Virus record (IMG/VR): IMGVR_UViG_3300045988_058853 | Location: 1 to 46,529 of that record | Length of the DNA stretch: 46,529 bases | Source: a virus | Reading direction: 5' to 3' (one strand) | Shown: positions 1,322-44,005 of the stretch, piece by piece | How the letters are laid out: every line of letters starts with the position of its first letter | Numbering within the stretch: the stretch's first letter is position 1 | Translations under genes and position numbers: made by a program | Notes under the pieces: model-generated | What the model saw: the letters and a program-made list of their open reading frames with translations, nothing else | What the model was told of the DNA's origin: nothing | Database searches by the model: none

Positions 1322-2071
1322 TTACTTCTTACCTAAAAACTTATTAACAAAATACCTTACTCCTTTTGGGGTTAAAACCGTAGTTGTACAAACCTTAGAT
1401 TCCTCACCAGTTACTATCACCCGTTTCTTAATCTCAAACAGACCCATGTTCATGTATGCCTGAGACGGCTGATTGCGTGACTCTCCAACGCTGCAAAGAT
1501 AACCTGCTTTTCTGATACGTTCATATAGTTGCTTTTCTCCGATCTGATAACCGTTTTGAGTGATTATTTTTGCCAGTTCACGGATAAGAATAGACTTCTT
1601 AGATGCTTCAACCGCTTCGCTAAACAGAACTTTCGGTTTGTCAGCCTCTATCTTTGCGTTCTTTTCCTCGATCTGTTTTTGCTGATTTTCAATGACCCCT
1701 TGTTGTTCGGCTGCAAGCAACAAGGCTTCACGGAATGATTTAGGAACGTTAAAGTTTCCCATGCTGTTAGCTCTTTCCAGTTCTTCCCACCGAATAACAA
1801 GTTTTGCTCTCGCTTCATCATTGAACTTAGTTGCTATATACAGGCACTCTGTTTTTGTTAGCTTATACATAGGACGATTCTCACCTTTCGCGTCTGTGTA
1901 TTCAACGAGGGAAAAATTTCCCCCGTTAACTTTTACCCAAGCACTCTCCATTGCCCGTATAGCTTTTAATACATCGTTATGCGGTTTTCCTGTAATTGTC
2001 GCAATCTCTTTTGATGTCATATACTCTTTTGCGTTTATAGTTTCGCCAACTTTAGATAAATTCGATTCCAT
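1322..2071 (-). CDS. Rha-family regulator / KilAC-type antirepressor (paralog 1 of 5)
   Basis: N-term KVGETINAKEYMTSKEIATITGKPHNDVLKAIR...PMYKLTKTECLYIATKFNDEARAKLVIRWEELE (Rha-like). C-term KPKVLFSEAVEASKKSILIRELAKII (antirepressor-like). Confidence 0.75.
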   Translation of the reverse strand: MESNLSKVGETINAKEYMTSKEIATITGKPHNDVLKAIRAMESAWVKVNGGNFSLVEYTDAKGENRPMYKLTKTECLYIATKFNDEARAKLVIRWEELERANSMGNFNVPKSFREALLLAAEQQGVIENQQKQIEEKNAKIEADKPKVLFSEAVEASKKSILIRELAKIITQNGYQIGEKQLYERIRKAGYLCSVGESRNQPSQAYMNMGLFEIKKRVIVTGEESKVCTTTVLTPKGVRYFVNKFLGKK

Positions 2072-2096
2072 GATTTAAAATTTTAATTATTAATTA

Positions 2097-2297
2097 TTAT
2101 TTGCTTAACAACTCGTCAAGCGTTTTTCTAAACTTTTTGTAGTCCTCTAATTCTTCATCAGACAAGACAATGAAGCACATACCATCAATGTATATACATT
2201 CCAATTTGCCACCTTTAATTAAACGCCAAATCCAAGGTACCGTAACACCTTTCATGTCAGCGTAGCTCTTTACTTTAATAAGATTTTCTAATTTCAT
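2097..2297 (-). CDS. Small putative DNA-binding protein (excisionase/MerR-like HTH)
   Basis: 66 aa; SYADMKGVTVPWIWRLIKGGKL resembles a short HTH. A TAnnTTTG box and a terminator lie upstream. Confidence 0.45.
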   Translation of the reverse strand: MKLENLIKVKSYADMKGVTVPWIWRLIKGGKLECIYIDGMCFIVLSDEELEDYKKFRKTLDELLSK

Positions 2298-2370
2298 ATT
2301 ACTATTATTTATTGATTCAACGCTACAAATATAGTGTTAATTATGATATACCACAAGGAAAAACAGTTTT
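2298..2370 (-). promoter_or_regulatory. Bacteroidota-type promoter candidate (-7 box TATATTTG = plus 2326..2333)
   Basis: Minus strand cacTATATTTGtagc about 28 nt upstream of the ATG at 2297, just downstream of terminator 2414..2453. Confidence 0.4.
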
Positions 2371-2413
2371 ATTTTTAATCTTTTTCGTAAACCGGATGAA
2401 TATCAGCCACTTA

Positions 2414-2453
2414 CAAAAAATACCCCACTCACAACGTTTGCAAGTGGGGTGTA
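2414..2453 (-). terminator. Rho-independent terminator after 2474..2776
   Basis: Stem accccact (2422-2429) / agtggggt (2443-2450). On the minus strand it is followed by ATTTTTTGT. Confidence 0.65.
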
Positions 2454-2473
2454 TATCACAATCAGAACCGGGT

Positions 2474-2776
2474 CTATCTCTCTACCATCTGATAGCATTT
2501 AGTCGTATTCATACCGGGTAACCTGTAATTTGCCTCTCTTATGTATCCAGCCGATACGAGGCGATTTACAGCGTTATACAACTTCTTCGTAGACATGAAA
2601 GGAATTATCTCTTTAAGTTTGGCTATCGAAACAAAAACCGTGTTAGGTACTTGTTTTACTCGACACCCTTTGAATTTCTCTCTGTACATTCCTGTGCAGA
2701 GGATAAGAATCATTTCGGAATATACGGCAGCAGCCTCTAAACCGATCTCGTTTGCTATCTTTTCATCTATAACCAT
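2474..2776 (-). CDS. Stand-alone winged-helix protein, paralog of the initiator N-domain
   Basis: IDEKIANEIGLEAAAVYSEM...VSIAKLKEIIPFMSTKKLYNAVNRLVSAGYIRE aligns with FDDKIAKELGIEAACVLHNF...EALSKLFPYMNSLKVYRVIGKLEEEGYILK of the junction gene. Confidence 0.55.
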   Translation of the reverse strand: MVIDEKIANEIGLEAAAVYSEMILILCTGMYREKFKGCRVKQVPNTVFVSIAKLKEIIPFMSTKKLYNAVNRLVSAGYIREANYRLPGMNTTKCYQMVER

Positions 2777-2779
2777 ATC

Positions 2780-3100
2780 TTACTTTATTTTTTTATACCA
2801 TCTAATATACGACAATGATTTATACCATTTATTTTGCTTTTTGGTTGCTTCAGTACTTATCTTTTCGCCACCGTCCACAAGTATATATTTTAGCTTGTTT
2901 TCATAATGCAAATATCTCTGATCCATTCCTATTTTTATATTTTTACGTATAATTGATTTCTTTGCAGCCTTAACGCAATACGAGTATTCGCAAAAAACTG
3001 TAAAATCGGATAACGCTTCACTAACATAGCAGTACTTGCATATGTCTGTACTCAAAAGGTTTATTACTGAATCTATTGCCAGTTTATTTATCTTTTTCAT
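2780..3100 (-). CDS. Hypothetical protein (Cys-rich N-terminus)
   Basis: ATG start; 4-nt overlap with the upstream gene; compact operon context. Confidence 0.55.
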   Translation of the reverse strand: MKKINKLAIDSVINLLSTDICKYCYVSEALSDFTVFCEYSYCVKAAKKSIIRKNIKIGMDQRYLHYENKLKYILVDGGEKISTEATKKQNKWYKSLSYIRWYKKIK

Positions 3101-4038
3101 TTCGCTTTAATTTGAATAGATTCTTTCACATCTGAGTATTTAATAAACTCTACGTAAATATCCGGATACTTCTCTTTCAACGCTTTAGTATCAAGGGATT
3201 CACGGCTATATGCTTTCTTCCGGGTGATAGTAATCAAGTCACCTTTGATATTGTCCGCTTTCGCTTCTTTCATCAATTCGAGTAATTGAGATTTAAACTT
3301 ATTCATCTGTTCGTCAAGCGTCTTTTGAATCTCGATTAACTGATATACAGATTCCTCTACGTTGTTGACCTTTTCCGGAAGATCGTTCAATTTAGCAACG
3401 TAAAAATCAGCACTACAATTATCTACGTATTTCAAGCCCTCTTTGCAGCATTGAAGGAATATCTCTATCTCTTTGTCCGGTATCCGTTCTACCGGAACAA
3501 TGGTGTCATTATCATCGCCTCTCAGCCATATAGCCAACAAGTGATCTACTATCAAATTCGGATTCTGTTTCTGAAAAAAATATGCGTAGATGGATAATTG
3601 CCATGATAGATATAGCATATCTAATTTGTAGGTAGTTTTTATATCTCCCAGTATAACAGAATTTGAGTATCTGCCTAAATACACCTTATCAATCGGTGAT
3701 GCGATAAATTCGTTATCAGTTACTATATACTCTGAGGCAATGTGAGTTAATCCGAAGTCACTTTTCAGTCTGAGATAGTTTTCACCCTGTTTTGATTCGG
3801 CTTCAATTCCTTCGTTATCTATGTTTTCACATTCTTCGTGCACTCGTTTCCCTCGCTCAGTGGCAAGGGATAAAACGCTTTCGGGGATACCGTCAAGTTT
3901 ACCGGGGAACAATTGCTCGTTGATAAATCCGGTTATACCATGCAGTTTCTTAAAGTCCGGTGTAAAATACTCATGTGTTTCTTCAATGTAGATAACATCT
4001 GATTGATTAAGTTTTGGTAATGTTATAATATTATTCAT
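3097..4038 (-). CDS. PD-(D/E)XK (RecB/Cas4-like) exonuclease, partner of the Erf annealase
   Basis: Motifs ERGKRVHEECE, SPIDKV, GDIKTT (D..D-x-K) and QLSIY (QxxxY). Located two genes downstream of Erf. Confidence 0.65.
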   Translation of the reverse strand: MNNIITLPKLNQSDVIYIEETHEYFTPDFKKLHGITGFINEQLFPGKLDGIPESVLSLATERGKRVHEECENIDNEGIEAESKQGENYLRLKSDFGLTHIASEYIVTDNEFIASPIDKVYLGRYSNSVILGDIKTTYKLDMLYLSWQLSIYAYFFQKQNPNLIVDHLLAIWLRGDDNDTIVPVERIPDKEIEIFLQCCKEGLKYVDNCSADFYVAKLNDLPEKVNNVEESVYQLIEIQKTLDEQMNKFKSQLLELMKEAKADNIKGDLITITRKKAYSRESLDTKALKEKYPDIYVEFIKYSDVKESIQIKAK

Positions 4039-4049
4039 AATGGTATATT

Positions 4050-4250
4050 TTAAAATGGGAAAAAGTTAGTTTTTAATCCAAGTGGATTTATATAAAAATG
4101 GAGTTTATTGTATTCTCTGTGAAAAGACAAAGAACGTCTTATTTTCTTTTCTTTTTGAGTAAATGCGTAAAAACGTCTACCTCCATTAACAATATAATAG
4201 TTTAGCTTTCTTTTGTAAGCTACTAAACCGTTAAACTTTTTGTTTTTCAT
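4050..4250 (-). CDS. Hypothetical small basic protein
   Basis: 66 aa; ATG preceded by GGAGGTAAGAA; 4-nt overlap with erf. Confidence 0.5.
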   Translation of the reverse strand: MKNKKFNGLVAYKRKLNYYIVNGGRRFYAFTQKEKKIRRSLSFHREYNKLHFYINPLGLKTNFFPF

Positions 4251-5268: not shown

Positions 5269-5380
5269 ATATACTACTTTTAATTGTTACTTACTTAATT
5301 CAACAATGCAAAGATAAGGCAAAACTTTAAATACACAAAGAATTTCTTTAATTTTATTGTTAATGAAATTTAAAACGCTG
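5269..5380 (-). promoter_or_regulatory. Promoter/leader cassette copy F (diverged); -7 box TATCTTTG = plus 5308..5315, with TTTG 19 nt upstream
   Basis: Minus strand ctTTTGtgtatttaaagttttgcctTATCTTTGcattgttgaattaagtaagtaacaatt; shares leader and -33 segments with the other cassettes. Confidence 0.5.
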
Positions 5381-5699: not shown

Positions 5700-6496
5700 A
5701 CTGCTACCTCCCCTCTTATTGCCGAATGGCTGTTATAATGAATAATATCTATATCCTCAAACTTAAAATCAAAAAGATCGGTAACGGAAGAATTCAAAAC
5801 AAGTTCCGGCAATCGCAACGGAATGCGATCTAATTGCGTCCTTACCTGTTCAACATGATTCAAGTATATGTGAGCGTCACCCAACGTATGAATGAATTTC
5901 CGTGGTTTCAGATTACACACATGTGCAACCATAGCAAGCAACAACGAATAAGACGCTATATTGAACGGAACGCCCAAGAATAAATCTGCACTACGTTGAT
6001 ACAATTGCAGGTCTAAAAAGCCATCCTTTGATACGTAGAACTGATAAAAGCAATGACATGGAGGCAAGTTCATTTTGTCAAGGTCGCCAACGTTCCATGA
6101 ATTAACGATTAATCTACGTGAATAGGGATCATTCTTAATCATCTCAATGACTGATTTAAGTTGATCTATACTTGTACGGCTGTTAACACGCCAATCACGC
6201 CACTGCGCACCGTATATCCGTCCTAAATTACCGTCCTTGTCTGCCCATGCATCCCAAATATGAACACCGTTTTTAAGCAGGTACTTAATATTGGTATCAC
6301 CTTTAATGAACCAAAGCAATTCATGTATAATACCCTTTGTGAATAGCTTTTTAGTAGTTACAAGCGGGAAGCCGTCACGAAGATCATAAACCTTTTGAGT
6401 ACCACCGAAAACGCTGATTGTTCCCGTTCCTGTTCGATCTTCACGCTTTTCGCCATAATTCAAAACATAAGAAAGTAAGTCTAAATACTGTTTCAT
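5696..6496 (-). CDS. thyA: Thymidylate synthase (ThyA type)
   Basis: [30 protein letters not shown] (catalytic Cys), [18 protein letters not shown] with Asn retained in PFNIAS. Confidence 0.95.
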
Positions 6497-6499
6497 AAT

Positions 6500-6700
6500 T
6501 TACTTGTTATTTTTAACCTGATATTTAATTAGATCATTTTCTCTCACTCTACGAATAAAACCATATTGACTCTGAACGAGATAATTTACGTTCTTATCCT
6601 TTTTACCTACGTGAATCTCAATGGAGAATACTCTAAACGGCTCTTTATGTGCACCGTACATCACTTCTTCGTCAACGTTAAACCTTGTTTTTATAACCAT
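6500..6700 (-). CDS. Hypothetical protein (66 aa)
   Basis: The track ORF 6500..6775 starts at a TTG inside the promoter cassette. The first ATG (6700) gives MVIKTRFNVDEEV... Confidence 0.55.
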   Translation of the reverse strand: MVIKTRFNVDEEVMYGAHKEPFRVFSIEIHVGKKDKNVNYLVQSQYGFIRRVRENDLIKYQVKNNK

Positions 6701-6820
6701 GATATTTGTTTTTAAATTGTTATTACTTTGTTTCCTTTTGACATTGCAAATATAAAGATTAAATTTAAAACACAAAGAGAAACTTTAAGTTTTAACGTGA
6801 AATTAACCTTTGCAAACAAA
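6701..6820 (-). promoter_or_regulatory. Promoter/leader cassette copy A (-7 box TATATTTG = plus 6747..6754)
   Basis: aattgttattactttgtttccttttgacattgcaaatataaag... is near-identical to copies B, C and D. Confidence 0.6.
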
Positions 6821-6821
6821 G

Positions 6822-6847
6822 CAAAAAAAAGAGGGGATAGGCCCTCT
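6822..6847 (-). terminator. Rho-independent terminator after 6849..7682
   Basis: Stem agaggg/ccctct with an 8-nt T-run on the minus strand (plus A-run 6823-6830), directly after the stop codon. Confidence 0.7.
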
Positions 6848-6848
6848 C

Positions 6849-7682
6849 TTATAATTTAACACCCTCAAACTCAATGTCGTTTACCTTCATAAAGTCAGCC
6901 AGTGCAAATGCTTGTTCCCTTGTTACTTTGACTTTAAACGCTCTTACATAAACCTGTTCGCTCTGATGCTTGTTTTCCGGCTGTTTTAGCGGCTGTTGTA
7001 TCCGATTCAATATGTCTGTCAGCTGAGGCGAGTTTTGAGCCGTGGTGGCTTCCAATGCCTTATTAACGAGTGATACACCGTATTGGTAGGTATTGTTATA
7101 GTCCAACGTATCTTGATATCGGTCAATTATAGCCATGTAGCAAGGTTCACCCTCAAAATGCTCTTTCAGTTTCTCGAAGTCAGCCGCCACCAGTTCAAAC
7201 AGTTCGTTAATCTCAGCCCGGACAATCGCAATACCTTTGTTCTTGTTTAGCCAGTTCGATTTAAAGCAACGGTTAAAATTTATAAGGTACTCGTTATGTT
7301 CGTCGAAATAGTCCCTTATTTGCTTCATCTTTGCGTCTTTTTCTTCCTGCTCAAACTTCTTAATCTGCAAATCTATGCTGTTTGAGGTGAGGTCTAACAT
7401 GGAACATGTGTCCTTAACCACATCTTTGAACTTGTTGAAAGGTTGCATGTATATCTTTTCGAGTTCGATTCGGGTATCGTTTAAGGCTTTAGACGATTTG
7501 TTAATCATTGCCCGATCTGCTTTTGCCTCTTTTATATCGTCCTCAGTATATGTTATACATTCATATACCTTCATCTTTTCTCTGACAATATCACGCATCT
7601 GAGAGACTCCCTCTATCATCTCCGACAGCTTTTTATCCTTAGTAATTAGCTGCAATTGGTTTTCAGTTATTCTATCTTTCAT
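6849..7682 (-). CDS. Hypothetical protein, DUF1351-like (recombination-module associated in other siphophages)
   Basis: 277 aa, helical. The N-terminal pattern (EKMKVYECITYTEDDIKEAKADRAMINK...LNDTRIELEK) recalls DUF1351; memory-based only. Confidence 0.4.
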   Translation of the reverse strand: MKDRITENQLQLITKDKKLSEMIEGVSQMRDIVREKMKVYECITYTEDDIKEAKADRAMINKSSKALNDTRIELEKIYMQPFNKFKDVVKDTCSMLDLTSNSIDLQIKKFEQEEKDAKMKQIRDYFDEHNEYLINFNRCFKSNWLNKNKGIAIVRAEINELFELVAADFEKLKEHFEGEPCYMAIIDRYQDTLDYNNTYQYGVSLVNKALEATTAQNSPQLTDILNRIQQPLKQPENKHQSEQVYVRAFKVKVTREQAFALADFMKVNDIEFEGVKL

Positions 7683-9407: not shown

Positions 9408-9647
9408 TTATAATACATCTTGTTTAATATCTCCATTTGAAAACACATACGTTACCAATATGCAGCGTATATTTGAGTCGACCATTTCGTTTTCAAAGAT
9501 AGTCCAAAATACCGTATGCCCGAACTTTTCAGCGCATTCACGCTGTTTTTTCTTAATCTGAGTCAATGCACCTCTAATTGTTTTTGCTCTAACCGAATAG
9601 GTATAATTAGCAAAAGATTCTCTAAAATACCATGTTTTAATTTTCAT
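9408..9647 (-). CDS. Hypothetical protein (79 aa)
   Basis: The track ORF starts at a TTG inside cassette B. The first ATG (9647) gives MKIKTWYFRESF... Confidence 0.55.
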   Translation of the reverse strand: MKIKTWYFRESFANYTYSVRAKTIRGALTQIKKKQRECAEKFGHTVFWTIFENEMVDSNIRCILVTYVFSNGDIKQDVL

Positions 9648-9760
9648 AATCGTATGCTTTAATGTTACTACTTTGTTTCTTTCGACACTGCAAATATAAA
9701 TCAAAACTTTAAATTACAAAGCAAAACTTTAATCTTTAACACTAATTTAACGTTTACCCG
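9648..9760 (-). promoter_or_regulatory. Promoter/leader cassette copy B (-7 box TATATTTG = plus 9691..9698)
   Basis: aatgttactactttgtttctttcgacactgcaaatataaatcaaaactttaaattacaaagcaaaactttaatctttaacac; first promoter after the late-operon terminators. Confidence 0.6.
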
Positions 9761-9775
9761 TCTGAGATAAGACAA

Positions 9776-12088: not shown

Positions 12089-15000
12089 TTAAGAAGGCAT
12101 ACCACAAAAATATGCAATAACTGCACAATCAAATAAACCGGAATTAGCATCGAAGGTTTTATACGTAAACGATCCCTGACTATAAGGTTCAATACATGCA
12201 CAACCCCATTTAGTATACTCCATAGGTTGAAGCATAATATATACATCTCCGGTATATCCGGTATATGTTACAGTATATCTGCCAGTCGATAGCTTTCTAA
12301 ATCCTGTGATATGGAAGTTAAAACTTCCCCACGTTTTGCCTATGGTTGCATTAGCAAGAAGTGAACATGCAAAAAACACTCCCGGTATCCGCACTTGATT
12401 TGCTGTCACTTGAAAGGTATCAACATTTAGTGAGCAATACTTTCCGGCAATCAGAGTGTTTCCTTTCCCTTGTATCTCTAAAGCAGGTTGGTTATCCCCT
12501 TTTTGATTTATCAGAATGCGACCCGGCTGCATCAATGTGTTATTTCCCTCTCCGGTGTTTGCACCCGACCATAAATCTATTTGAGAACTGTTTAAACCAG
12601 TCAACCAGTTTAGCGATACTTGGAAACTTCCGATACGTGCACCATTTGTTAAAGTGATATTTCCGCCAGTTAACCTATTGCCCGAAATCGACATGCCCGC
12701 AATCACCGCACCATCCGTCACAGTCAAGTTTCCCGTTGTTATCCTCTGCGCTGCAAAGCCATTCGCAACAACCTCGCCCGCCTCAATAACGTTGGCAGTC
12801 AAGCGACCGTTTGCGTTCAAAGCTGCCGTTTGCTGTCCTGCGTTGTTTTGAAAGAGGACGTTATCCGACTTCAAAACGATCTTGCGGGAGGTGATGTTTA
12901 TCCCAGTTTCGACCAGTCCGTTTTGGGTGGCGGTGACACGACCGTCTACTGCGTCCGCTTTGTTGCTTGCCGTTCCGGCTGTGGCTTTGGCATCATTGGC
13001 TGTGCCCTCAACAACACCAAGTTTAATGCTTGTGGAATCAAGTTTAATCTCAGCAGCACTCAGTCGATTACCTTGATCGTCTACCCTTTCGACCACAGAA
13101 TTAATACTGCTTTCTGTCTGAGTTACCCGTGAAGCAAGTCCGGTTACTTTACCGTCAACCTCTGTTATCTTTTCTACAGTAGTGGTGATTTTGCCCTCTA
13201 CGATACTAATCTGCTGTCTCGTATACTCCTTTGACTCATTTACGCCATCTTCGGGGGCGGGTTTCCATCCGGTAGCGGTGTCACCTATTTCGATCTGAGG
13301 ATTACATATTTTCATCGTAGTACCGTCACCGACTTGAATATAGAAACTTATACCAATATTCTGAGCGTTAACAATATCATTGGGAACTGTAACAGTCTCA
13401 ACAAATCTACCTGTATCAGCTTTTAAAGAAGTGGAATCGAAGTACTTCCACGAACCGATATAGTAATGGTTTGATGTACCATCCTTTAATACAGCTTCTT
13501 CCATCCCTATACGACTATTTCGACCTAAAACAAGGTTGCTATATTCATAATCAAAAGACAAAGTAACTTTCTTTCCCCTTAAATCACGCCAATACTTAGA
13601 CATGTTTATACGAAAATGATTCCCTACGCCAGTAATACATACACCCGATTTTAAACAGAGATTAGCACCACCAATCACACGCTTGTTCAATTGCGTAGTT
13701 ACAGATAGTTCGATCTTCCCATCAACAGCCAATATTTGAGTATCTGTGTACTTCACAGATTTGTACAACTGATCTTCGGGGGCTGGACTCCATGAAACAG
13801 GAAAGCTTGTTTCAAATATTCCAATACGCAAGTAAGTCGAGATAGGAGTGTGATAAGAACCCAATATGTATCTAATAGCCTTTGATGTAAGGATGAAATT
13901 GTTTCCTATGCTGTCATTATATACCGCCATGTACTCGCTTGTGCCATCAGTGTACTCGATCCGCAAAGAGATACTTCTTGTGCCATTAGGAATTGTAGCC
14001 GATGGAACAAAATGATCTATAAACACATAATACCTTTTTTGAGGGTCATAGGTTAAACCGAACATATCCTTCTTAGCTACAAATGACTCCTTGTGCAATA
14101 CCGATGGTAACATAAGAATTGTACCGTCATCATCATATCGTGAAGCGTATGTGAATCCCGCATCAACAATACGTTTAAAAGAGCATAAGTTCTTAAGTCC
14201 TACGTTCTTCTCACTTGCAGCAGGTATCCAACTGGTTACGCCTAAATTGCCATCAGTCAAAACAGCCCAATGTACTTTTGAACCGTACGTGCCATTAGGA
14301 AACTGAAAGAAATAAAGTCCCTCAGTAGGCTTATAACCAACCATAGTAACCTTTTTGCTTTCAACAACCATGTTCCCCTTAGTATTAAAATCTACAAGAA
14401 AATTTGTACCTCTATTAGAGTAGGCTGAAATATGTGTATTCTCGGATGATAAAGTATAACATACAGTTAACGTATATTCCTTTCCATTAATAACAGGAAC
14501 ATCGTAGTTGTAATACCCTATATTATAAGAAGCATTTGTAATTTCCCTAAACGCACCTTTTAGCAGGTTTGTGTCCGCTGTCTTTAAACTACGTACAGCA
14601 AGTTCAATCTTACCGGGAATAGCAGTTATCTCGGTATCCAAATACTCTTTCAGTTTCTTTTCCGCTTCATCTACATACGATTTAGCAGCGTTCGAAATAG
14701 CATTCAACGCTCCGTTACGTTTGTCGTAGTAAGCCGTTTGACTCTGTGCCAACTCCGGACGGACTGCAATATCCTCCGGTGTGGCTGCTGAGTGATAGCG
14801 TAGTTCATTCAGATAGTTATTATACGCCTCTGTGTATTCAGTTACAGGAACACCGTATTTGTCCGCATTCGCTTTTATTTGCAGATATTCAGCCTGTATG
14901 CGCTTCCCCTCGTCAATCAAAGCAGGTTTCTCAGTCGGTGAAATAAAGCCATCGTCAGCCCATTTATTAAGCCGATCTTTCGCCTCCTGCGCTGTCTGTT

Positions 15001-19371: not shown

Positions 19372-22300
19372 TTCGTCTTTATTATACGTTTAACATTTCC
19401 TTTCACCTCAATGATTGTACCGTCCGCTCCCGTTATAAACTTGTGTCCGGCACTCTCCTTGATTGATTTCAAATCACGTTCTACATTAGACAAATCTACG
19501 TTGCCTCCCTGCATGATATTCGTGACTTCATCAGCACCGGAATAGGCGTTTAGGTATTTCTGTTCAAAAGTACCTTTATTCAGTGAATTAATCAAGTCAG
19601 GCACTAACCGTCTATAACGTTGGGAAGAACGTTTGTTAATTACTGCAAAATATTCACCCTTTTCTACCCGTCTGCGCTTGCCGTCCTTTGTTGTACCTAA
19701 ATCAACATCGTTGCCCGAAGCATGTGAACCTCCGTAGTCAATCATTTCGACCGTACCGTTACCGTATTCCTCTGTTTGGTCTGAGGCTTTAGATAACTGA
19801 GAGGCTTTAATCTTAGCGAATGCAAACGACCCCCACATCAATGCGATTGCCGGAATAGCTGCTAATCCCAAGTCTTTCCACAAATTAGCAGTTGCAGTAA
19901 CCAAAGAACTTGCCTGCATCAGTGTATCTATCCGTTCCTGTGCCTTCTGAGCCTTCTTCTTATCTCTCAGTGCTTTTTCTTGCTGCTTGCGGGCGAAGTC
20001 CAGTTCCTTTTGTGCGGTTGCTACGTTGTTGGCGTATCCGTTTGCCCTCGCTTGTATTTCAGCGTCCAGTACCTTTTGACGTGCTGATACTTCCTTTTCG
20101 GCTGCCTGTACAGCTTTCTCAGCCGCTTCGACCCTTGCCTGTGCTACGCTCTTAAGATTCTCTATTGCGTACTCCGAAGCGTCTGCAATCGACTGCTTAA
20201 ATTCCTCTGAACGCTCTTTGCCGGACTTACCACCTTTATCACCGAACGCGCCGCCAAACATCAGATCAAACAGGTTACCAAATACACCTTGTTCGGAATC
20301 CCAACCGGACGCTTTTTGTTTGATGGCATTATCTATGCCTGCGATAGTGTCCTCAACCGTTTTAATCTCGTATCCCGTAATCTGAGAACCGTATAAGCGT
20401 GTTAGCTCTAATATCTGTTCCCATTTTTGACGCTCAGCATTTAACCGGAAAACTTCCTGCTCTTTTGCTGATCGTTGCACAATGTTAAATTCGGCTTCGC
20501 TTGCTTGTTGTTCTTGCTGCAAGCGGAACACAGACCGGGATATTATACGATTATTCTGATCATTCGTGAAGTCCTCCCGTAGCTTGATAGACGCCAATTG
20601 ATACGCACGCTGCAATATCAAAAGACGTTCGTTCTTTACCGCTTCTGTGTCCGTTGACTGTTTGATACGTAGTTCATCTTGTTTCCGTTCGTTTTCAAGT
20701 AAGTAAGTTTGCAATAACAGTTCTTCCCCAGTTCCTGCACGCACAGCCCTCAGACGTTCGTTCATAAAGTCATGCGCTTTCTGTAAATCTTCCAATTCCC
20801 ATCTTTCACGCAACTTTTCCAAGTCCCTACGCAGTTTTGCCTCTATGTTATAAACGGTATCCGCATATTGTTGCGTAGCTCTTTGCTTTTCCGTTGTGTC
20901 CTTTTGAAGTTTAGAGAGTTCCGCCCTCGCTGCCTCTCTTATCTCCGCTTCTTCTTTCTTTCGTGCGTCTGTAATCAGAGCTACTCTGCTTTCCTCGTAG
21001 GCTTTTAGTAGATCGAACTCCTTTTTCTTGCTGTCCTTAGTAGTATCCTTTCCGGTCACCGAATCAACGCTAACGAGTTTAGTAAGATTCTCCATTGACT
21101 TGGTTAAGATATTCTGCCTCTTAGCAAGTTTCTCCGCTTCATCTCCGTACTCCTTAATATTATCTTTGAGTTTATTAACATTGCTCGCTGTCGCTGCATA
21201 ATATTGACTCGCTGCCTGTGTAGACGTTGCTGTTATGGTAGACGATACCTTTGCGGTGTATTGCTCCGCTTTTGCGAGTTCGCCCTGCGCCTGTACTTGC
21301 TTCGTTAATAGACCGATTCTTTTTTGATCTGCATCTATAAACTCCTTTTGCAACTCTGTTATCTTATCCAGTGCGGCACGTGCTTTTGCATTCTCTGTAA
21401 TAGCCTTAGTTGCTTCTTTATACGCTTTAGACGCTTTCCCTAACTTTATTTCTTCATCGCTTAGGTTTTTAAAGTATTCGGGATACTCCTTTTTCAATGC
21501 CTTAACCGCTTTCGTCCTTTCGTTTGTAGATTTAGCGTTGTTTGTAGCTGTTTTGTACAGTAAGTTGAGTTTTAAAGTCTCTTTCGCTGTCTCTAATCGC
21601 GCGTTTTGCATAGCATCAGCCATATGTTTAAGGCTACCCGTTAAGCTCTCTACCCGCTTCTTTCCTGTGAATAAGCTGCCTATCCAGTTGGTTATATCCT
21701 TACCCCACAGAGAAAAAGCAGTAAGCACTAACACCATGACAGTGTTAAACGAAAACATTGACTTGATAAGTTTCCCCGTAATACTTACTTGCGCCTCACC
21801 TGCTTTTGCTGCTGCTTCATTTGCTGCCCTCAGTTTTTGTATCTCGTCTATAACCATTGGAATGTTATTCGAGATAGCGAGGAAGAAGGTGTTTGCGCTG
21901 ATCGCCAGTGATGGCAACTCACGTGCAACCTGTGACACAGAAAAACCTAAACCATCAAATGCCTGTTTGTAGTTACCTACGCTTAACGTGTGTTTCCCAG
22001 TGCTCTTTTGATACTTATCCATCGCTGCGTATATCTCAGCTGTTTGTTTAACAAGTCGCTTGCCTGCTTCTGTATTCTCCAAATACGACTGAGAAAGATT
22101 GTTCATCTTAATCTTGTTTAGCTCGTATTGTGCGGACAGGGCATTGTAGCTACCAGCCATTGAATTATTTAACTTAGCTTGCAGTTTATTAAGCCGTGTT
22201 TGATCTGTCTGCTGCTGCTTCAATACGGCTATCTCCTTAGCGGTATCTGTCATAGCCAACTTTAAATCAACTTCGGCACGTGCCAGTGAACGAACCTGTT

Positions 22301-25725: not shown

Positions 25726-26481
25726 TTACAATTTTACGTTATTAATTAATTTTAAAAAGTGATCTCTACCTTTTGCAGTTACCAGTGTTTGAGTCCCTGC
25801 CTTTTCACCTTTCGCCCATTCTTTCAACTCCAAATAGTTTCCAACATACTGGGCTATTGGCTTCAACTTTCCTTTCTGATCTCGGTATATGTACTTCTTA
25901 TCAATCAGGAGAAAGATAAGTGCTTTTTCAGACACGCCTAACAGCTTTGCTGTATCTCTGAAATTGGTTAGTCCGTTCCGGTCTACTATTTCATCAAAGT
26001 ATTCGGCTTTGGGCTTCATATCTTTATTCTCTATCTGCAACCGTTCGTTTTCCTCTACCTGTACGAGTAGTTCCTTTAAAGCCTCTTTGTACGTTTGAGG
26101 CAATTTAGGTTGATTGTCCATTAGAGCGTTTTCCAATTTTTCAATATAAGAAATAACTGCTTTACGGACAAACTTACTTTCACGTACTAAAACCTGCTTT
26201 GCTTGTGATAGAGTCAACTCAAACATTGGGTATTCTTGACCGTTCTGAGGGTGTTTATATAGGGTAGGCAGAATTTTCTGCATACCTATTTCCTCGTCAA
26301 ATTCATCTCTAATAACATCTAATAAAGTTTTATGTTTCAATTTAGTTCTGTCACCTTCCTGCTCTCTAAACAAATTGATTTGTTTCAATAACTCCAAAGA
26401 TGTTATTTTCTCCTGCGTACGTTCGCCAACTTTGATTAATTCATTCATTTGTTTTCTTGTTTTTATTATTGCGGGTGACAT
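25726..26481 (-). CDS. KilAC-domain antirepressor (paralog 3 of 5) with a divergent N-domain
   Basis: C-term KPKAEYFDEIVDRNGLTNFRDTAKLLGVSEKALIFLLIDKKYIYRD...LELKEWAKGEKAGTQTLVT is close to the paralog 2 C-term. The track start (26517) is a TTG. ATG at 26481. An alternative ATG at 26448 gives MNELIKVGE, matching the leader of paralogs 1, 2 and 4. Confidence 0.75.
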   Translation of the reverse strand: MSPAIIKTRKQMNELIKVGERTQEKITSLELLKQINLFREQEGDRTKLKHKTLLDVIRDEFDEEIGMQKILPTLYKHPQNGQEYPMFELTLSQAKQVLVRESKFVRKAVISYIEKLENALMDNQPKLPQTYKEALKELLVQVEENERLQIENKDMKPKAEYFDEIVDRNGLTNFRDTAKLLGVSEKALIFLLIDKKYIYRDQKGKLKPIAQYVGNYLELKEWAKGEKAGTQTLVTAKGRDHFLKLINNVKL

Positions 26482-26506: not shown

Positions 26507-26737
26507 TTACTTACCAAAATCTATTACTATGTTAATACAATGTTTGTTGCAGTCAATTGTGAATGGTACATTGTGAACGTTACAAGCATGAAGAATAGCA
26601 TTCGTTAAAACTGTGTTCTCTTTTCCGTAACCGCATGATACTCCTTCATCCGAACATTGTGCACACCCATCACCACCAAGCAATTTATACATTGCATAAA
26701 CACTCTCACAAAATTGTTTTTTAGTCATTGTTGCCAT
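26507..26737 (-). CDS. Small Cys-rich protein (76 aa)
   Basis: First gene after cassette C; GGDGCAQCSDEGVSCGYG...HACNVH...IDCNKHC. Confidence 0.55.
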   Translation of the reverse strand: MATMTKKQFCESVYAMYKLLGGDGCAQCSDEGVSCGYGKENTVLTNAILHACNVHNVPFTIDCNKHCINIVIDFGK

Positions 26738-26846
26738 AATTGTTGTTTTTTAATTGTTACTACTTTGTTTCCTTTTGACATTGCAAATATAAGCATAACT
26801 TTTAAAATGCAAAGCAAAACTTTAATCTTTAACACTTATTTAACAC
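26738..26846 (-). promoter_or_regulatory. Promoter/leader cassette copy C (-7 box TATATTTG = plus 26784..26791)
   Basis: tttttaattgttactactttgtttccttttgacattgcaaatataa (1 mismatch to copy D over 46 nt) and ttaatctttaacacttatttaacacaaaa (29 nt identical to D). Confidence 0.65.
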
Positions 26847-26880
26847 AAAAGGGGATATATACATATATGTATACTCCCCT
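26847..26880 (-). terminator. Rho-independent terminator after the head/neck genes
   Basis: Long bulged stem ggggatatata / tatgtata(c)tcccc. The minus strand continues TTTTG. Confidence 0.6.
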
Positions 26881-39863: not shown

Positions 39864-39884
39864 AATTCTACTATTTAATTGTTA

Positions 39885-40061
39885 TTACTTTACTTCTAAA
39901 TCTCTAAGGATATTTGTTGCACGCTCGTTCCCATTCTCAGCCGCTTTAACTAAAGCCTCGTAATGTGATAGCTTGTTTCCGCCAAAAACGTGTGCAGAAC
40001 GCAAAAGCATTAATAACTTTGAATGACTGATCTTTTCTCCTTTATAAATGTAAGTTGTCAT
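39885..40061 (-). CDS. Small ORF (58 aa; below the track cutoff), first gene after cassette D
   Basis: Own translation: MTTYIYKGEKISHSKLLMLLRSAHVFGGNKLSHYEALVKAAENGNERATNILRDLEVK. Confidence 0.45.
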   Translation of the reverse strand: MTTYIYKGEKISHSKLLMLLRSAHVFGGNKLSHYEALVKAAENGNERATNILRDLEVK

Positions 40062-40170
40062 ATTGGTTAATTTTTAATTGTTACTACTTTGTTTCCTTTT
40101 GACACTGCAAATATAAAGCAAAACTTTAATATTCTAATTATAAATTTAATCTTTAACACTTATTTAACAC
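40062..40170 (-). promoter_or_regulatory. Promoter/leader cassette copy D (-7 box TATATTTG = plus 40108..40115)
   Basis: Near-identical to copy C in the leader (46 nt, 1 mismatch) and the distal segment (29 nt identical). Confidence 0.65.
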
Positions 40171-40203
40171 AAAAAGGGATACCCTGCTTTAGAGTATCCC
40201 CCC
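40171..40203 (-). terminator. Rho-independent terminator after ssb
   Basis: Stem gggatac (40176-40182) / gtatccc (40194-40200). The minus strand continues TTTTTGTG. Confidence 0.7.
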
Positions 40204-40663: not shown

Positions 40664-40914
40664 TGCATTAATTTTAAAAAGATGAATACTAAGAATAGCA
40701 CAAAGATAGCTATATCTATAAAACTTACACGAATTCCATCGTCTATTTTTCGTGATACCGTTTTGAAATTCTCAGCAACACGCAAATAATCATATTCGCC
40801 AGACCCTGTGAAAATCTTAGTCGAATCGTTACAAGCCTCCAAAGATACTACTTTGTCCCTATTTATTAATACCTTTTGTCCGTCTACTCCAGTAAATTCT
40901 ACTAATTTTCCCAT
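40660..40914 (-). CDS. Small protein with a C-terminal TM anchor
   Basis: 84 aa ending IDIAIFVLFLVFIFLKLMQ. Confidence 0.5.
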   Translation of the reverse strand: MGKLVEFTGVDGQKVLINRDKVVSLEACNDSTKIFTGSGEYDYLRVAENFKTVSRKIDDGIRVSFIDIAIFVLFLVFIFLKLMQ

Positions 40915-40918
40915 GATA

Positions 40919-41347
40919 CTACTTTTGTAATTTTAAACTATCCCTTTTGAGGACTTTTATTTTCTCTAAATTTTCTTGATAGATACGCATTCCCTTGCGG
41001 GTGTTAGCGTGTTCCCATTGATTGTGATGTTCAAAGCAAAGTATGTTGATATTTCGAGGATCATGCGCTAACATCGGGAATGCTCCTCGAGTGCAAATAT
41101 GCGAAATATAAACGGCTGAGTACCCTTTCAACGGCTTCAAGCATTCTTCGCAATAGTGAGGCTTAATCTCCCACATATACCGAAAAAACCGCTCGTTTGC
41201 CCTATGATCGTGACCGTCACCGAATAGACTTTTCAAATACTGATACCTTGCTTTAGGCTCTATGTCGAAATGTCGATTGAAAAGCAAGGGATTATATCCC
41301 CTACTTAAACAATACTCTATTTCTTCCGGACTACTCAACAGGTACAT
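40919..41347 (-). CDS. Putative HNH-family endonuclease
   Basis: CEEC...SHICTRGAFPMLAHDPRNINILCFEHHNQWEH (CxxC, H, N, CxxHH pattern). The long track ORF (to 41485) overlaps the upstream gene by 155 nt; the ATG at 41347 is preferred. Confidence 0.45.
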   Translation of the reverse strand: MYLLSSPEEIEYCLSRGYNPLLFNRHFDIEPKARYQYLKSLFGDGHDHRANERFFRYMWEIKPHYCEECLKPLKGYSAVYISHICTRGAFPMLAHDPRNINILCFEHHNQWEHANTRKGMRIYQENLEKIKVLKRDSLKLQK

Positions 41348-41978
41348 CGCTTTCAGTTTCTTCGTCAAAGAAAGAATCACCCTCTGTATCGTCATCAGCG
41401 TCTTTAATATCGTCCGCCTCCGCAATCTCACCGAACATTGAAAGTTGCGCACGCTTACCTTTAAACAGATAATCAAATATTTCATGCTTCATACCCTCTA
41501 AGTCAGTATTCATGTCAATTTCAAATTTAAGTATTTCACCCTCCAAATTGATTTTAGGAGTCTGCATTTTAAACAGCGACAAGTCTGTACCTGTAAACTC
41601 GTATTTGATAATTACCGTGTTCTTTTCTTCATCTCTCACAATCTCTCTAATCAGAATTCGAGTAGACTGTATTTCAAAGAAGTCTTGAAACTGCCTATCC
41701 AATTCCTTATCTTGTTTTGAAAGATCGGATAAGTAGGTGATGTTTGCAAAATTCATCAAACCCATAAGCCGGACGATATACCCTCTCAATTTCCAGGATT
41801 CGTTCTGCAAATCGGGGTGAGGATATTCCGGATTCTTCACTTTATGAAACGTCTTAACCGTTTCACCGTCAACATTCATACAATCATTGTAATCTACTTC
41901 CAAACCGTTGGGAATGAACTTTACTCTCTTTAATTCAAAATTGTCGTACAACATACTAATATTTGTTTTTAGGTTCAT
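41331..41978 (-). CDS. Hypothetical protein with an acidic C-terminus
   Basis: 215 aa ending ADDIKDADDDTEGDSFFDEETESDVPVE. Confidence 0.55.
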   Translation of the reverse strand: MNLKTNISMLYDNFELKRVKFIPNGLEVDYNDCMNVDGETVKTFHKVKNPEYPHPDLQNESWKLRGYIVRLMGLMNFANITYLSDLSKQDKELDRQFQDFFEIQSTRILIREIVRDEEKNTVIIKYEFTGTDLSLFKMQTPKINLEGEILKFEIDMNTDLEGMKHEIFDYLFKGKRAQLSMFGEIAEADDIKDADDDTEGDSFFDEETESDVPVE

Positions 41979-42126
41979 AATGCTCGCATACCCTTCCGAT
42001 ATTCGGGCAACTGCATAACTTTTGTTTTCTTTTGCTGCAATAGCATATCAGATTGTGGTAATCTGATCCAAATTGGCAATCTGTACAGTGAACGAGGACT
42101 AAATTTTTGTTATTCTTCTTCGCCAT
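41956..42126 (-). CDS. Small Cys-rich ORF (56 aa; below the track cutoff) filling the 130-nt gap
   Basis: Own translation: MAKKNNKNLVLVHCTDCQFGSDYHNLICYCSKRKQKLCSCPNIGRVCEHYEPKNKY. Overlaps both neighbours (17 and 23 nt). Confidence 0.45.
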   Translation of the reverse strand: MAKKNNKNLVLVHCTDCQFGSDYHNLICYCSKRKQKLCSCPNIGRVCEHYEPKNKY

Positions 42127-42436
42127 TCAAATAACGCTCCAACCGTTCATCAATCAATCGCTTGTATTCAACTGCCAACGGATCGTTAACCTCTAATTGG
42201 TTTTGAAATTTGCGGTGCGCTATCACTATTAAAGCCCTCGTCCTATCTAATAGCTCCGGCAAACCGTCTAAACGATAATCGTACAATTGATGGATAATAC
42301 AGTTTCGTCTAATTGAAATATCTCTCGTAATCTCCCGGCTTAAAATATCTTCCGGTGATACCGAAAGAGCCTCACACATCAAGTCGAATTTTTCTCTCAA
42401 TGTCATTTCGCAATCTTCTTCTCTAACTTCTTTCAT
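42110..42436 (-). CDS. Hypothetical protein
   Basis: ATG start; 4-nt overlap with the upstream gene. Confidence 0.55.
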   Translation of the reverse strand: MKEVREEDCEMTLREKFDLMCEALSVSPEDILSREITRDISIRRNCIIHQLYDYRLDGLPELLDRTRALIVIAHRKFQNQLEVNDPLAVEYKRLIDERLERYLNGEEE

Positions 42437-42873
42437 TTCTTTACGTATTTTGTTGCGTCCTCTATAAAAACTCCCAGTTCTTCGGCTGCAAACTGTTTTA
42501 AAAAATCAATATACTCTACAAACTCACTGTTTGATAAGTCGTTGATACTTACCGGGTCACTCCGATACTCACCCGTCTCAATATCCACAACCTCACCCAT
42601 TGTTACCGGACATAAGTTTCGCATATACAACTCTGTGTCTTTTTCGCTCCATCTATCACCATTGTCGTACATTCCTTTTTGAAACTGTGGTACTACCACT
42701 TTGTAGTAATATGCTTTCATGGCGACAGATTGCGAAGGCTCGTAAACGCTAAAACTTGCTATGATATTCTTTCCTTTGTGCAGTTTCGCAAACTCGTTTA
42801 GCTCACCCATGTACATTTGCAACTGTCCGTTACTTGTTACCTTCCCCGGTATTGTTATCCTGTTTTGCTTCAT
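42433..42873 (-). CDS. Hypothetical protein
   Basis: 146 aa, ATG start. Confidence 0.55.
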   Translation of the reverse strand: MKQNRITIPGKVTSNGQLQMYMGELNEFAKLHKGKNIIASFSVYEPSQSVAMKAYYYKVVVPQFQKGMYDNGDRWSEKDTELYMRNLCPVTMGEVVDIETGEYRSDPVSINDLSNSEFVEYIDFLKQFAAEELGVFIEDATKYVKK

Positions 42874-43177
42874 TTTGTTTCATTTTAGAAAATACCTTAG
42901 CAAATACACTACCACACAAAGAAGAAATAAAGCCACGCACAGCAGCAGGGAGATCGCTCTTTCTCAGCAGAATTTTTTCAAACTCTTCGATAATGTCCGA
43001 AACAGTCATATCGTCAATGCGATCTAACATAATCCGCTTCGTCAATCCTCCATTTCTCAGAATTTTGTTTTTAGCTCGTTCAACATCTGAACGCATAGTA
43101 CTAAGCTGATTTGTTAATTCACCTTTAAACTCCTGTGATTTAATTACATCTTCAACTGTCATTTCATTAGTATTCAT
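42830..43177 (-). CDS. Hypothetical protein, first gene after cassette E
   Basis: 115 aa, ATG start. Confidence 0.55.
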   Translation of the reverse strand: MNTNEMTVEDVIKSQEFKGELTNQLSTMRSDVERAKNKILRNGGLTKRIMLDRIDDMTVSDIIEEFEKILLRKSDLPAAVRGFISSLCGSVFAKVFSKMKQNEAKQDNNTGEGNK

Positions 43178-43260
43178 ACTTTAATAAGTTTTTAAATCGT
43201 TACTACTATGATTAAATTTGATATTGCAAATTAAAGCAAAACTTTAATTATACGCAAACA
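43178..43260 (-). promoter_or_regulatory. Promoter/leader cassette copy E (diverged)
   Basis: aatcgttactactatgattaaatttgatattgcaaattaaagcaaaactttaatta shares the gttactact, ttgcaaat and gcaaaactttaat blocks. Confidence 0.45.
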
Positions 43261-43312
43261 AAAACGGATAAATCTTTCCGAAATACCCGTTATTTAACTT
43301 TTGTTTAGAATA

Positions 43313-44005
43313 TCACTTGAATAAGTTTAATATAAAATCTCTTCCCTTTCCAGTCCAACGTCGATCATACGTTATTTTTCCACTATCTAAAACTATTTGC
43401 TTTGTGGAGGTATATTCGTTTTCTGCATACTTCGCATAAAGCAACCAAGTTCCGTTTTGCTTGAACTGTATTCCCATCTTTTCAAGTACCTTATTTAATT
43501 CTATTGCAGAACGAAAACCAAGCTCTTTTGAAATTTCAGTAGTCGTATATGTTTTGTTATTATGGATAAGTCTTTCTACATTTTCCTTTGCCTCCTTTGC
43601 TTCGATCTGGGCTTTTTGTTTTTCTCTGTATTCGTTTGCCCATGCAATAGCCGCCTCAGCCGGGTCTGAAAAATTAGGCAATACAATCGATTGTTCTTTC
43701 AGTATCTTTTCCATTTTGTTAAAAGCGTCTATATAATCTTCCTTAAATTTCATTGCAGTTTCACCAGTATAGCCCATAACTAAAAGAGTGAAACCATCTT
43801 TATTCATAACATACATAGGTAGTTCTCTATTCTGATCGCTACAATAAGAGGAGAGCACGAAATTGTGCTGTCTAAATTTGTTACTACATTTTAAATCTCG
43901 AATGTCTTGCAAAACTCTCTTATGATCCTTCCCGAACTTTTCGGCTACTAATAAGCTACTTGTTAAAACTTGATTTGATTCTCCTTTAAATACTAAATCT
44001 TTCAT
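43313..44005 (-). CDS. Rha-family phage regulatory protein (paralog 5 of 5, most canonical Rha N-domain)
   Basis: LTSSLLVAEKFGKDHKRVLQDIRDL...LPMYVMNKDGFTLLVMGYTGETAMKFKEDYIDAFNKME. Confidence 0.75.
   Translation of the reverse strand: MKDLVFKGESNQVLTSSLLVAEKFGKDHKRVLQDIRDLKCSNKFRQHNFVLSSYCSDQNRELPMYVMNKDGFTLLVMGYTGETAMKFKEDYIDAFNKMEKILKEQSIVLPNFSDPAEAAIAWANEYREKQKAQIEAKEAKENVERLIHNNKTYTTTEISKELGFRSAIELNKVLEKMGIQFKQNGTWLLYAKYAENEYTSTKQIVLDSGKITYDRRWTGKGRDFILNLFK

Follow-up and report, generated by a model that had tools for sequence, protein, structure and literature searches.

Five intact Rha/KilAC paralogues in a virulent Bacteroides phage genome, and exchange of N-modules on slot-fixed KilAC subtypes in its relatives

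The stretch of DNA analyzed here, positions 1 to 46,529 of IMG/VR virus record IMGVR_UViG_3300045988_058853 (46,529 nt, hereafter the window), encodes five paralogous proteins, P1 to P5, in which a Rha-type N-terminal domain is followed by a KilAC (ANT) C-terminal domain. All five genes prove to be genuine, intact and homologous, and the window presents one architecture five times with subtype mosaicism, rather than combinations of unrelated families. Together they add up to approximately 3.6 kb, as noted in a preliminary description of this DNA, or 7.7% of the 46-kb genome, and they represent a known gene family expanded to an unusual extent, without amounting to a new kind of system. The family, its architecture, the alternation of its N-terminal domains and its occurrence, with one or two genes, in phages B40-8 and B124-14 were already known, and the principle of module shuffling has reportedly been described before; the new elements are the five intact copies in a virulent phage, a slot rule for the exchange of their modules and the purifying selection acting on them. 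On balance, we lean slightly towards explaining the five as functional modular regulator or host-takeover genes of a strictly lytic phage.

Five copies of one architecture in a virulent phage

The five genes and their Pfam scores are as follows.

1322..2071, minus strand: P1, Rha (alpha), linker helix and KilAC (subtype B, AriS/gp42-like); Rha 67.4 bits, ANT 83.7 bits
8159..8848, minus strand: P2, Rha (alpha, P1-like) and KilAC (subtype A, P3-like); Rha 66.8 bits, ANT 71.2 bits
25726..26448, minus strand: P3, divergent Rha-like N-domain (gamma) and KilAC (subtype A); Rha 17.9 bits, ANT 78.2 bits
38215..38934, minus strand: P4, Rha (alpha) and KilAC (subtype C); Rha 76.5 bits, ANT 96.6 bits
43313..44005, minus strand: P5, canonical Rha (beta) and KilAC (subtype D); Rha 106.8 bits, ANT 66.0 bits

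The five open reading frames (ORFs) lie on the minus strand where the preliminary description had placed them, and their translations agree. A profile built from the paralogues and searched against all six-frame ORFs of the window recovered exactly these five (E 1e-78 to 1e-112) and no sixth, hidden paralogue, the next match having E 0.35. The Phage_pRha domain (PF09669) spans approximately residues 15–104 and ANT/KilAC (PF03374) approximately residues 132–248. All five proteins match PF03374 with 66–97 bits, against a gathering cut-off of 25.3 bits, and cover nearly the whole of its 108-position model. The cut-off of PF09669 (29.9 bits) is reached by P1, P2, P4 and P5 (66.8–106.8 bits), whereas P3 falls below it (17.9 vs. 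29.9 bits, E 0.0048); the homology of its N-terminal half receives indirect support from a full-length match to PHROG 63 (E 1e-37) and a full-length BLASTP alignment to P2 (42.5%). PHROG 63, annotated as "anti-repressor Ant", is matched by all five (E 1e-37 to 6e-60, approximately residues 1–237), and the NCBIfam model TIGR02681 (cut-off 45.95) reaches its threshold only with P5 (112.6) and P4 (46.1).

This domain assignment changes the reading of the C-terminal halves. P1 and P4 had been credited with a C-domain different from that of P2 and P3, and P5 with yet another C-terminus. All five C-terminal halves match PF03374, P5 included (66.0 vs. 25.3 bits), and the differences noticed by eye are hence differences between KilAC subtypes. 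The P1 and P4 domains do share a KPKV.F..AV motif, but they are only 28% identical and no nearer to each other than other pairs are. The description of P5 as carrying the most canonical Rha domain stands, since its Rha score is the highest of the five. The common leader attributed to four genes is present as M-N-x-[LI]-I-KVGE in P2, P4 and, from the ATG at 26448, in P3; P1 has one residue more (MESNLSKVGE), and the P5 leader is only similar (MKDLVFKGE). Three starts can be considered for P3, TTG 26517, ATG 26481 (the one originally chosen) and ATG 26448, and the last is the best supported, because its orthologue in phage BF695P3 has a stop four codons before the equivalent methionine and because the alignment of the paralogues begins there. 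Downstream, a conserved P-x-T-[FY]-x-E-A-L motif marks the start of a long central helix.

Within the window, the two halves of the proteins follow different lines of relationship. P1 and P2 are 69% identical in the N-domain, where they share the Rha core ...ECLYIATKFNDEARAKLVIRWEELE recognized at the outset, and 25% identical in the C-domain; P2 and P3 are 30% identical in the N-domain and 60% in the C-domain, where a common KilAC domain had likewise been correctly perceived; and P1 or P2 compared with P4 yield approximately 45% and 28%, respectively. P2 thus combines a P1-like front with a P3-like back. The same pattern is visible in the DNA, with 78% identity between P1 and P2 over 294 nt (nucleotides 13–298), including a 100-nt tract at 90%, and 68% identity between P2 and P3 over the final 294 nt. 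The proposal that N- and C-modules have been combinatorially shuffled therefore holds as regards the separate histories of the two halves, but not as regards a repertoire of unrelated C-terminal families, since all five are KilAC.

An AlphaFold model of P4, based on a 39-sequence alignment, is of moderate confidence, with a predicted local distance difference test (pLDDT) score of 71. It shows an N-domain of helices and a beta-hairpin, a long helix at residues 116–140 and a C-domain of similar helix/hairpin topology, reproduced in a model of the C-domain alone, so that a helix-turn-helix plus beta-hairpin arrangement is predicted in both domains; the KVGE leader (residues 1–13) is modelled with low confidence as disordered. 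Foldseek searches of PDB with the full model and with the C-domain model returned nothing at E ≤ 0.001, and a sequence search of PDB gave no match. The best weak structural matches (E 0.017–0.03) are mostly winged-helix DNA-binding proteins, which makes a winged-helix-type fold a suggestive assignment.

The genome that carries these genes is complete. Its bases 1–55 are identical to bases 46475–46529, and this exact 55-nt terminal overlap identifies the window as a circular assembly of approximately 46,474 bp, in which all credible genes lie on the minus strand. By megablast it groups with the B40-8/B124-14 Bacteroides siphophages of the gut, the closest record being BK649P1 (93% identity over 92% of a 12-kb query), and the published members of this group are described as strictly lytic (PMC3338817, PMC7644841). 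Scans of 40 non-paralogue window proteins against PHROGs and Pfam identify replication, nucleotide-metabolism and HNH genes, together with a set of recombination genes (Erf, a RecE-like exonuclease, SSB, a Holliday-junction resolvase and a NinB-like protein). No integrase or repressor was found among these 40 proteins, some 20 small ORFs lying outside the scan, which is consistent with the initial statement that the genome has no integrase or CI repressor. No immunity repressor is annotated in ten complete relatives either, and the window is that of a virulent phage.

Copy number and module exchange across the phage group

Six-frame ORFs of the ten complete relatives were searched with the paralogue profile, and the matches, compared by their flanking genes, fall into five syntenic slots. 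The copies are distributed as follows.

B124-14: one copy and a small fragment (ORF63)
vB_BfrS_23 and UZM3: one copy each
B40-8, BF766P1 and BF698P1: two copies each
BF486P1: two copies and a 97-aa fragment
BF695P3 and BF698P3: three copies each
BK649P1: four loci, among them a P4 with an in-frame stop and a P3-slot gene without a Rha domain
Window: five intact copies

The structural and replication genes are present in all ten relatives, and P1 occupies the only paralogue slot that is filled in all ten at the protein level. At the DNA level, P1 is found in eight relatives, P2 in four, P3 in two, P4 in one and P5 in two. P1 is hence the core slot, and P2 to P5 are accessory slots located in islands. 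A scan of IMG/VR with each paralogue, which was pattern-based and can miss divergent copies, gave a similar picture: approximately 40 contigs of this phage group, some of them partial, carry a P1-slot gene; of these, 6 also have P2, about 10 have a P3-slot gene, 5 have P4 and 3 have P5. The full set of five was seen in none of the ten relatives and, within the limits of a pattern-based scan of partly incomplete contigs, in none of the approximately 40 IMG/VR contigs, where four per contig is the maximum; five intact copies are thus the highest number seen among some 50 relatives. P5 has orthologues in BF766P1 (94% identity) and B40-8 (ORF26, 81%). The only P4 among the ten isolates is that of BK649P1 (positions 19676-20398 of that genome), 99% identical to the window gene; one in-frame stop divides it into ORFs of 98 and 140 aa, because the gene has recently decayed or because the sequence contains an error. 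In BF695P3, the P3 slot (12970-14397) holds a 475-aa fusion of a P3-like N-domain and the first ~44 KilAC positions to approximately 290 aa that lack a Pfam match.

Domain identity matrices across the slot orthologues, combined with Pfam assignments, reveal a simple rule: the KilAC subtype is fixed for each slot and the N-terminal module is promiscuous, encompassing three Rha subtypes, Bro-N and AntA. C-domain identity within slots amounts to 76–97% for P1, 98% for P2, 77–96% for P3 and 94–100% for P5, and it does not exceed 34% between slots, except for the P2 and P3 slots (52–60%). The same P1 slot, on the other hand, contains a Rha-alpha domain in the window, BK649P1 and BF486P1, a Rha-beta domain in B124-14, vB_BfrS_23, UZM3, BF766P1 and BF695P3, and a Bro-N domain (PF02498) in B40-8, BF698P1 and BF698P3. 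Across the group, the P3 slot is occupied by Rha-gamma, by AntA (PF08346) with KilAC, by a short unassigned N-terminus with KilAC, by the 475-aa fusion or by a fragment. N-modules also cross slots. The N-domain in the P5 slot of B40-8 is 94% identical to that in the P1 slot of BF766P1, and the P2-slot protein of BF698P3 has an N-domain closer to P4 (64%) than to P2 (53%) on a C-domain that is 98% identical to P2.

Synonymous divergence (dS), computed separately for the two halves of orthologue pairs, confirms their separate histories in the sequences, with a gap between the halves of one pair that reaches approximately 12-fold.

P2 vs. BF698P3: dS 1.29 in the N-half, 0.10 in the C-half
P5 vs. 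B40-8: dS 2.48 in the N-half, 0.20 in the C-half
P1 vs. BK649P1: dS 0.09 in the N-half, 0.39 in the C-half

N-modules have been exchanged by recombination near the linker, not only between slots and between lineages of this phage group, but also with unrelated Bacteroides phages and prophage-like regions. The N-module of P4 is 86% identical to LoVEphage Ant and, to the same degree, to a stand-alone 123-aa Rha gene of B. acidifaciens DSM 15896 and several metagenome-assembled genomes; in DSM 15896 (5989-7095) this gene is directly followed by a gene with a KilA-N domain and lies downstream of a 1644-aa ORF, in surroundings of prophage-like appearance. The C-module of P5 is 70% identical to a gene in a 74-kb B. 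uniformis phage, and IMG/VR contigs of 74–82 kb contain a full-length protein 83% identical to P3 and an N-module 88% identical to that of P5. These contigs belong to a different group of larger Bacteroides phages with two or three Rha/KilAC genes each, represented by 3300045988_123660 (82.5 kb), 3300029417_000003 (79.2 kb) and 3300045988_107942 (74.4 kb). Two contigs of about 80 kb carry three such genes apiece, and the modules of the larger group are shared with P3 (83%, full length), P4 and P5 (N-modules, 82–88%). The multi-copy state and the sharing of modules thus extend beyond the B40-8 group.

Selection and transcriptional context

Ratios of nonsynonymous to synonymous substitution rates (dN/dS) in eight orthologue pairs range from 0.07 to 0.37 (0.12–0.17 for P1 and 0.07–0.37 for P2), and P4 has dozens of full-length relatives, 78–100% identical, on metagenomic contigs of about 46 kb. 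The genes are hence under purifying selection, and this bears directly on the suggestion, put forward for B124-14 (PMC3338817), that they are non-functional remnants of a temperate ancestor. A lytic lifestyle and a genome in which neither repressor nor integrase was found are what such remnants would be expected to accompany, and damaged copies do exist in relatives, as in the interrupted P4 of BK649P1, the 97-aa fragment of BF486P1 and the ORF63 fragment of B124-14. Nevertheless, the five copies of the window are intact, the abundance of full-length P4 relatives speaks against decay, the family as a whole has expanded instead of eroding, and the dN/dS values lead us to reject the remnant explanation, which we regard as extremely improbable.

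Much of the transcriptional context of the paralogues is provided by a conserved cassette, which occurs at least six times on the minus strand (at 5.3, 6.7, 9.7, 26.8, 40.1 and 43.2 kb). A terminator/promoter/5'-leader element in its organization, it contains a GC hairpin and T-run, several GTTAAA motifs, a promoter-like TTTG...TAnnTTTGC site and a conserved A-rich leader of approximately 40 nt (GAAACAAAGTAGTAACAATTAAAAA). Five matches to the promoter pattern occur in the window, where 0.56 would be expected by chance; the sites are promoter-like in that they match TTTG/TAnnTTTG, the Bacteroides promoter consensus. The cassette copies and the other candidate signals next to the paralogues are the following.

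5299-5339, minus strand: cassette copy (repeat search and alignment)
6693-6820, minus strand: cassette copy (repeat search and alignment)
9637..9764, minus strand: cassette copy 5' of the P2 unit, P2 being the fourth gene after it (repeat family D1/D4, alignment, TTTG...TAnnTTTGC match)
26730..26857, minus strand: cassette copy 5' of ORF 26507-26737 and P3, P3 being the second gene after it (repeats, alignment, promoter-pattern match)
40054..40181, minus strand: cassette copy 5' of the P4 unit (repeats, alignment, conserved in relatives)
43191..43232, minus strand: partial cassette copy immediately 3' of P5, beginning the next unit (repeats D7 and D17, alignment)
39873-39896: leader-only cassette copy
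2326..2450, minus strand: terminator hairpin (2450-2422) followed by a promoter-like site TATATTTG (2333-2326), 5' of ORF 2097-2297 and P1
44130-44122, minus strand: promoter-like site TATATTTGC for P5 (sequence match)

The cassette delimits transcription units, and its leader is unusually conserved for a 5' untranslated region. It is retained in all ten relatives, single-copy genomes included, with the 26.8-kb copy at an equivalent place, and is therefore a family-wide regulatory element not tied to the additional paralogues; a role as an operator specific to these paralogues was rejected on the same grounds. P1 is the first sizeable gene of the replication operon, following a promoter-like site and a 66-aa ORF (2097-2297), for which a Xis/HTH_17-like identity guessed by eye found no support in Pfam, NCBIfam or PHROGs. 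P3 lies inside the structural module, where the cassette copy that precedes it sits in a variable island, and P4 lies between conserved genes downstream of the 40.1-kb copy. P5 has the appearance of a self-contained insert, because the next cassette follows it directly and marks the next unit. Approximately 115 nt of leader separate the P5 start codon from the promoter-like site, and an inverted repeat within this leader, GCCTCGGTTCG...CGGATCGAGGC (44070-44030, minus strand), may form a regulatory hairpin.

Alignment of the 150 nt 5' of the five genes reveals no conservation before the ATG. Within the genes, P1, P2 and P4 share a 5' coding leader whose DNA conservation (78–87% over 27–91 nt) does not exceed what the identity of the proteins explains, and a DNA element in this leader, comparable to the Roi site discussed below, was discarded as a candidate.

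The insert-like appearance of P5, with its own promoter-like site and the next cassette directly 3', invites comparison with free-standing homing genes, as does the patchy occurrence of the paralogues between conserved neighbours and the presence of their modules in unrelated phages. Selfish cassettes that spread between conserved genes without benefit to the phage would account for these features. Pfam and PHROGs scans, however, place no nuclease, recombinase or transposase domain in or beside the genes, a repeat search of the window detected no flanking repeats, and strong purifying selection acts on both domains, all of which makes self-spreading a very unlikely explanation.

Homologous systems, proposed function and other features of the window

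In tblastn searches, P4 matches the roi genes of HK022, HK97 and H-19B with 32–34% identity over residues 1–238 (E 1e-18 to 1e-21). The Roi protein of HK022 and HK97 is likewise a Rha plus KilAC protein, collinear over its full length of approximately 230–240 aa, but it is encoded by a single-copy gene of temperate lambdoid phages. Roi, a DNA-binding protein of the nin region, recognizes a site inside its own gene and shows interplay with IHF. On a broader scale, Iyer, Koonin and Aravind reportedly described in 2002 how the multigene BRO, KilA-N and Bro-N families of large DNA viruses and phages shuffle DNA-binding N-modules onto a few C-modules, KilA-C among them, with lineage-specific expansions that give one viral genome several copies; here, by contrast, the setting is a 46-kb phage in which a slot-fixed C-subtype is combined with a promiscuous N-module.

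The closest functional precedents come from AriS-like proteins, in which a C-terminal KilAC domain is combined with AntA, Bro-N or pRha as alternative N-domains (Azulay et al., 2022; PMC9043618). This architecture is found here, and the same three N-terminal families occur in the slots of this phage group as among AriS (Listeria phi10403S LMRG_02920), A118 gp42 and their like. The KilAC domain of AriS suppresses the SOS response, probably via RecA, and its N-domain regulates the genes of its own phage (PMC9043618). The KilAC domains of P1 and P4 both resemble that of Listeria phage A118 gp42: in BLASTP, the linker and KilAC domain of P1 are 44% identical to gp42 over 121 aa (E 1e-27), P4 reaches 36% identity (E 9e-12) and P5 matches with E 4e-5, whereas the KilAC domains of P2 and P3 have no significant similarity to it. 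The P1 domain thus resembles a Listeria protein more closely than it does the other four paralogues of the window, and the subtypes are hence old lineages. Gene position is also comparable, with gp42 in the early lytic region, where approximately 2 kb and several small genes separate it from the cro-side regulator upstream, and P1 at the head of the replication genes after a promoter-like site and a small ORF. AriS differs in being a single-copy gene of a temperate prophage with a CI-like repressor, where the window has five copies in a virulent phage in which no repressor was found.

Gp07 of the Staphylococcus phage phi11 (Bro-N plus KilA-C) provides a further parallel, as its KilA-C domain inhibits growth; this effect and filamentation have been seen only when the protein is over-expressed in E. 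coli (PMC5944126). It shares with the present genes a KilAC C-domain and an exchangeable N-domain, and Bro-N plus KilAC proteins fill the P1 slot of B40-8, BF698P1 and BF698P3; the copies of the window, however, carry Rha and not Bro-N. Direct orthologues in the P1 and P5 slots are B40-8 ORF22 (Ant) and ORF26 (Rha), B124-14 ORF67 and vB_BfrS_23 CD70. Antirepressor/Rha genes in these lytic phages have already been remarked upon as odd (PMC3338817, PMC7644841), yet their genomes contain one or two copies, to which the window adds the P2, P3 and P4 slots, and no paper was found on the multi-copy state in this phage group. The roles put forward at the outset, namely induction or silencing of resident prophages, action against host regulators and anti-defence decoys, are candidate functions. 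Membership in a defence system was also considered and rejected, since the PADLOC models gave only marginal matches to the paralogues (E ≥ 0.0013).

These homologies bear on a reading of the paralogues as temporal transcription factors of the phage itself, which, in the manner of Roi or Rha, would bind phage sites and tune their own operon. Roi, which binds DNA within its own gene, is a full-length homologue, the N-domain of AriS acts on the genes of its own phage, and P1 to P4 lie a few genes after a promoter-like site that, for P2 to P4, belongs to a conserved cassette with GTTAAA repeats. The cassette, however, is present in 10/10 relatives, including single-copy genomes with another type of N-domain, and cannot depend on P2 to P5; most relatives do without these genes despite having the same operons; and the replacement of Rha by Bro-N or AntA in one slot would, in an essential regulator, require co-variation of the target sites, of which none was seen. 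Control of the phage's own transcription accordingly appears rather unlikely.

A second possibility retains the traditional name of the family. Trans-acting antirepressors that bind and inactivate repressors in the infected Bacteroides cell, each protein acting on that of a different prophage or integrated element resident there, would remove superinfection immunity or wake competitors, and would not need a repressor in their own genome. The Ant1 protein of phage P1, with its KilAC domain, and the trans-acting antirepressors of the Gifsy prophages are precedents (cited in PMC7644841). Modules 70–88% identical in other Bacteroides phages and in the prophage-like region of B. acidifaciens would fit shared targets, and copy number and N-modules do differ between phages isolated on different hosts; the sharing of modules is, however, equally well explained by recombination among co-infecting phages, and no target was identified by sequence. 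Among the homologues compared here, AriS/gp42, Roi and phi11 Gp07 are not reported as repressor binders, and Roi binds DNA. AriS, for its part, targets the SOS response and not a repressor (PMC9043618). The classical antirepressors of the P22 Ant or P1 Ant type inactivate a cognate immunity repressor encoded by the same phage, which was not found for the present genes, and the name "antirepressor" would not suit genes of a phage that has none. Action against the repressors of other elements thus appears rather unlikely.

The explanation that we favour, functional modular regulators or host-takeover effectors, assigns distinct tasks to the two modules. The Rha-type domain, a predicted winged-helix target-recognition module, would provide specificity for a DNA site, as in HK022 Roi, or for a partner, and the KilAC module would provide an effector activity aimed at the host, for which the RecA-dependent SOS block of AriS and A118 gp42 and the growth or division arrest caused by phi11 Gp07 are precedents. 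P1 is probably the core early regulator of the family and a modulator of SOS and RecA, and with a KilAC domain 44% identical to the tested A118 gp42 it is the best AriS-like candidate; modulation of SOS or RecA would be plausible here, given that the phage relies on its own Erf, exonuclease and SSB recombination genes for replication. P2 to P5 are probably accessory, strain-dependent variants, whose turnover would reflect different hosts, resident prophages or host factors. We infer all of these functions by analogy.

Several points weigh against this explanation. The homologues on which function is modelled are only 32–44% identical and belong to temperate phages of Firmicutes and E. coli. 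P2 and P3 do not resemble gp42 in BLASTP, so that activity may differ between subtypes, and with models of pLDDT 71 and no significant PDB match the fold is only suggestive. The promoter assignment relies on the similarity of the sites to a consensus sequence. Lastly, the variable presence of P2 to P5 shows that the basic lytic cycle can proceed without them, but does not in itself reveal their purpose.

A bolder extension, to which we give a low probability, is that gut Bacteroides phages maintain a community-wide, plug-and-play effector system, in which each slot keeps its KilAC subtype and recombination supplies targeting N-modules from a common reservoir that includes unrelated phages and prophages. 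The five copies would then be host-takeover, anti-prophage or anti-immunity effectors matched to different host strains, and not regulators of lysogeny, and might, for instance, silence RecA/SOS-linked or repressor-type responses by different routes. Phages of the B40-8/B124-14 type serve as tracers of human faecal pollution and are candidate tools for engineering the gut microbiome. Their "antirepressor" genes, until now treated as puzzling leftovers, are here found to be selectively maintained, to lie behind sites that match the host-type promoter consensus and to number one to five per genome, with a clear rule of module exchange, which makes them prime candidates for a part in strain-level host range or in the interplay between phages and prophages.

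Some further features of the window lie outside the paralogues. The window contains no homologue of the "DNA invertase" annotated in B124-14. Next to P1, positions 464-1279 on the minus strand encode a phosphoadenosine-phosphosulfate reductase-like accessory protein (PHROG 424, E 1e-32), which among the ten relatives is present only in BK649P1 and may be a DNA-modification gene or a metabolic moron. The gene for an O-like replication initiator spans the circular junction, ORF 3-446 joining 45928-46515, and contains two tandem repeats of 21–22 nt (CAACTTGCATTTTGCAT[A/T]TTT, at 25-45 and 47-67). The lambda origin is located inside gene O, and by analogy these repeats are possible origin iterons.

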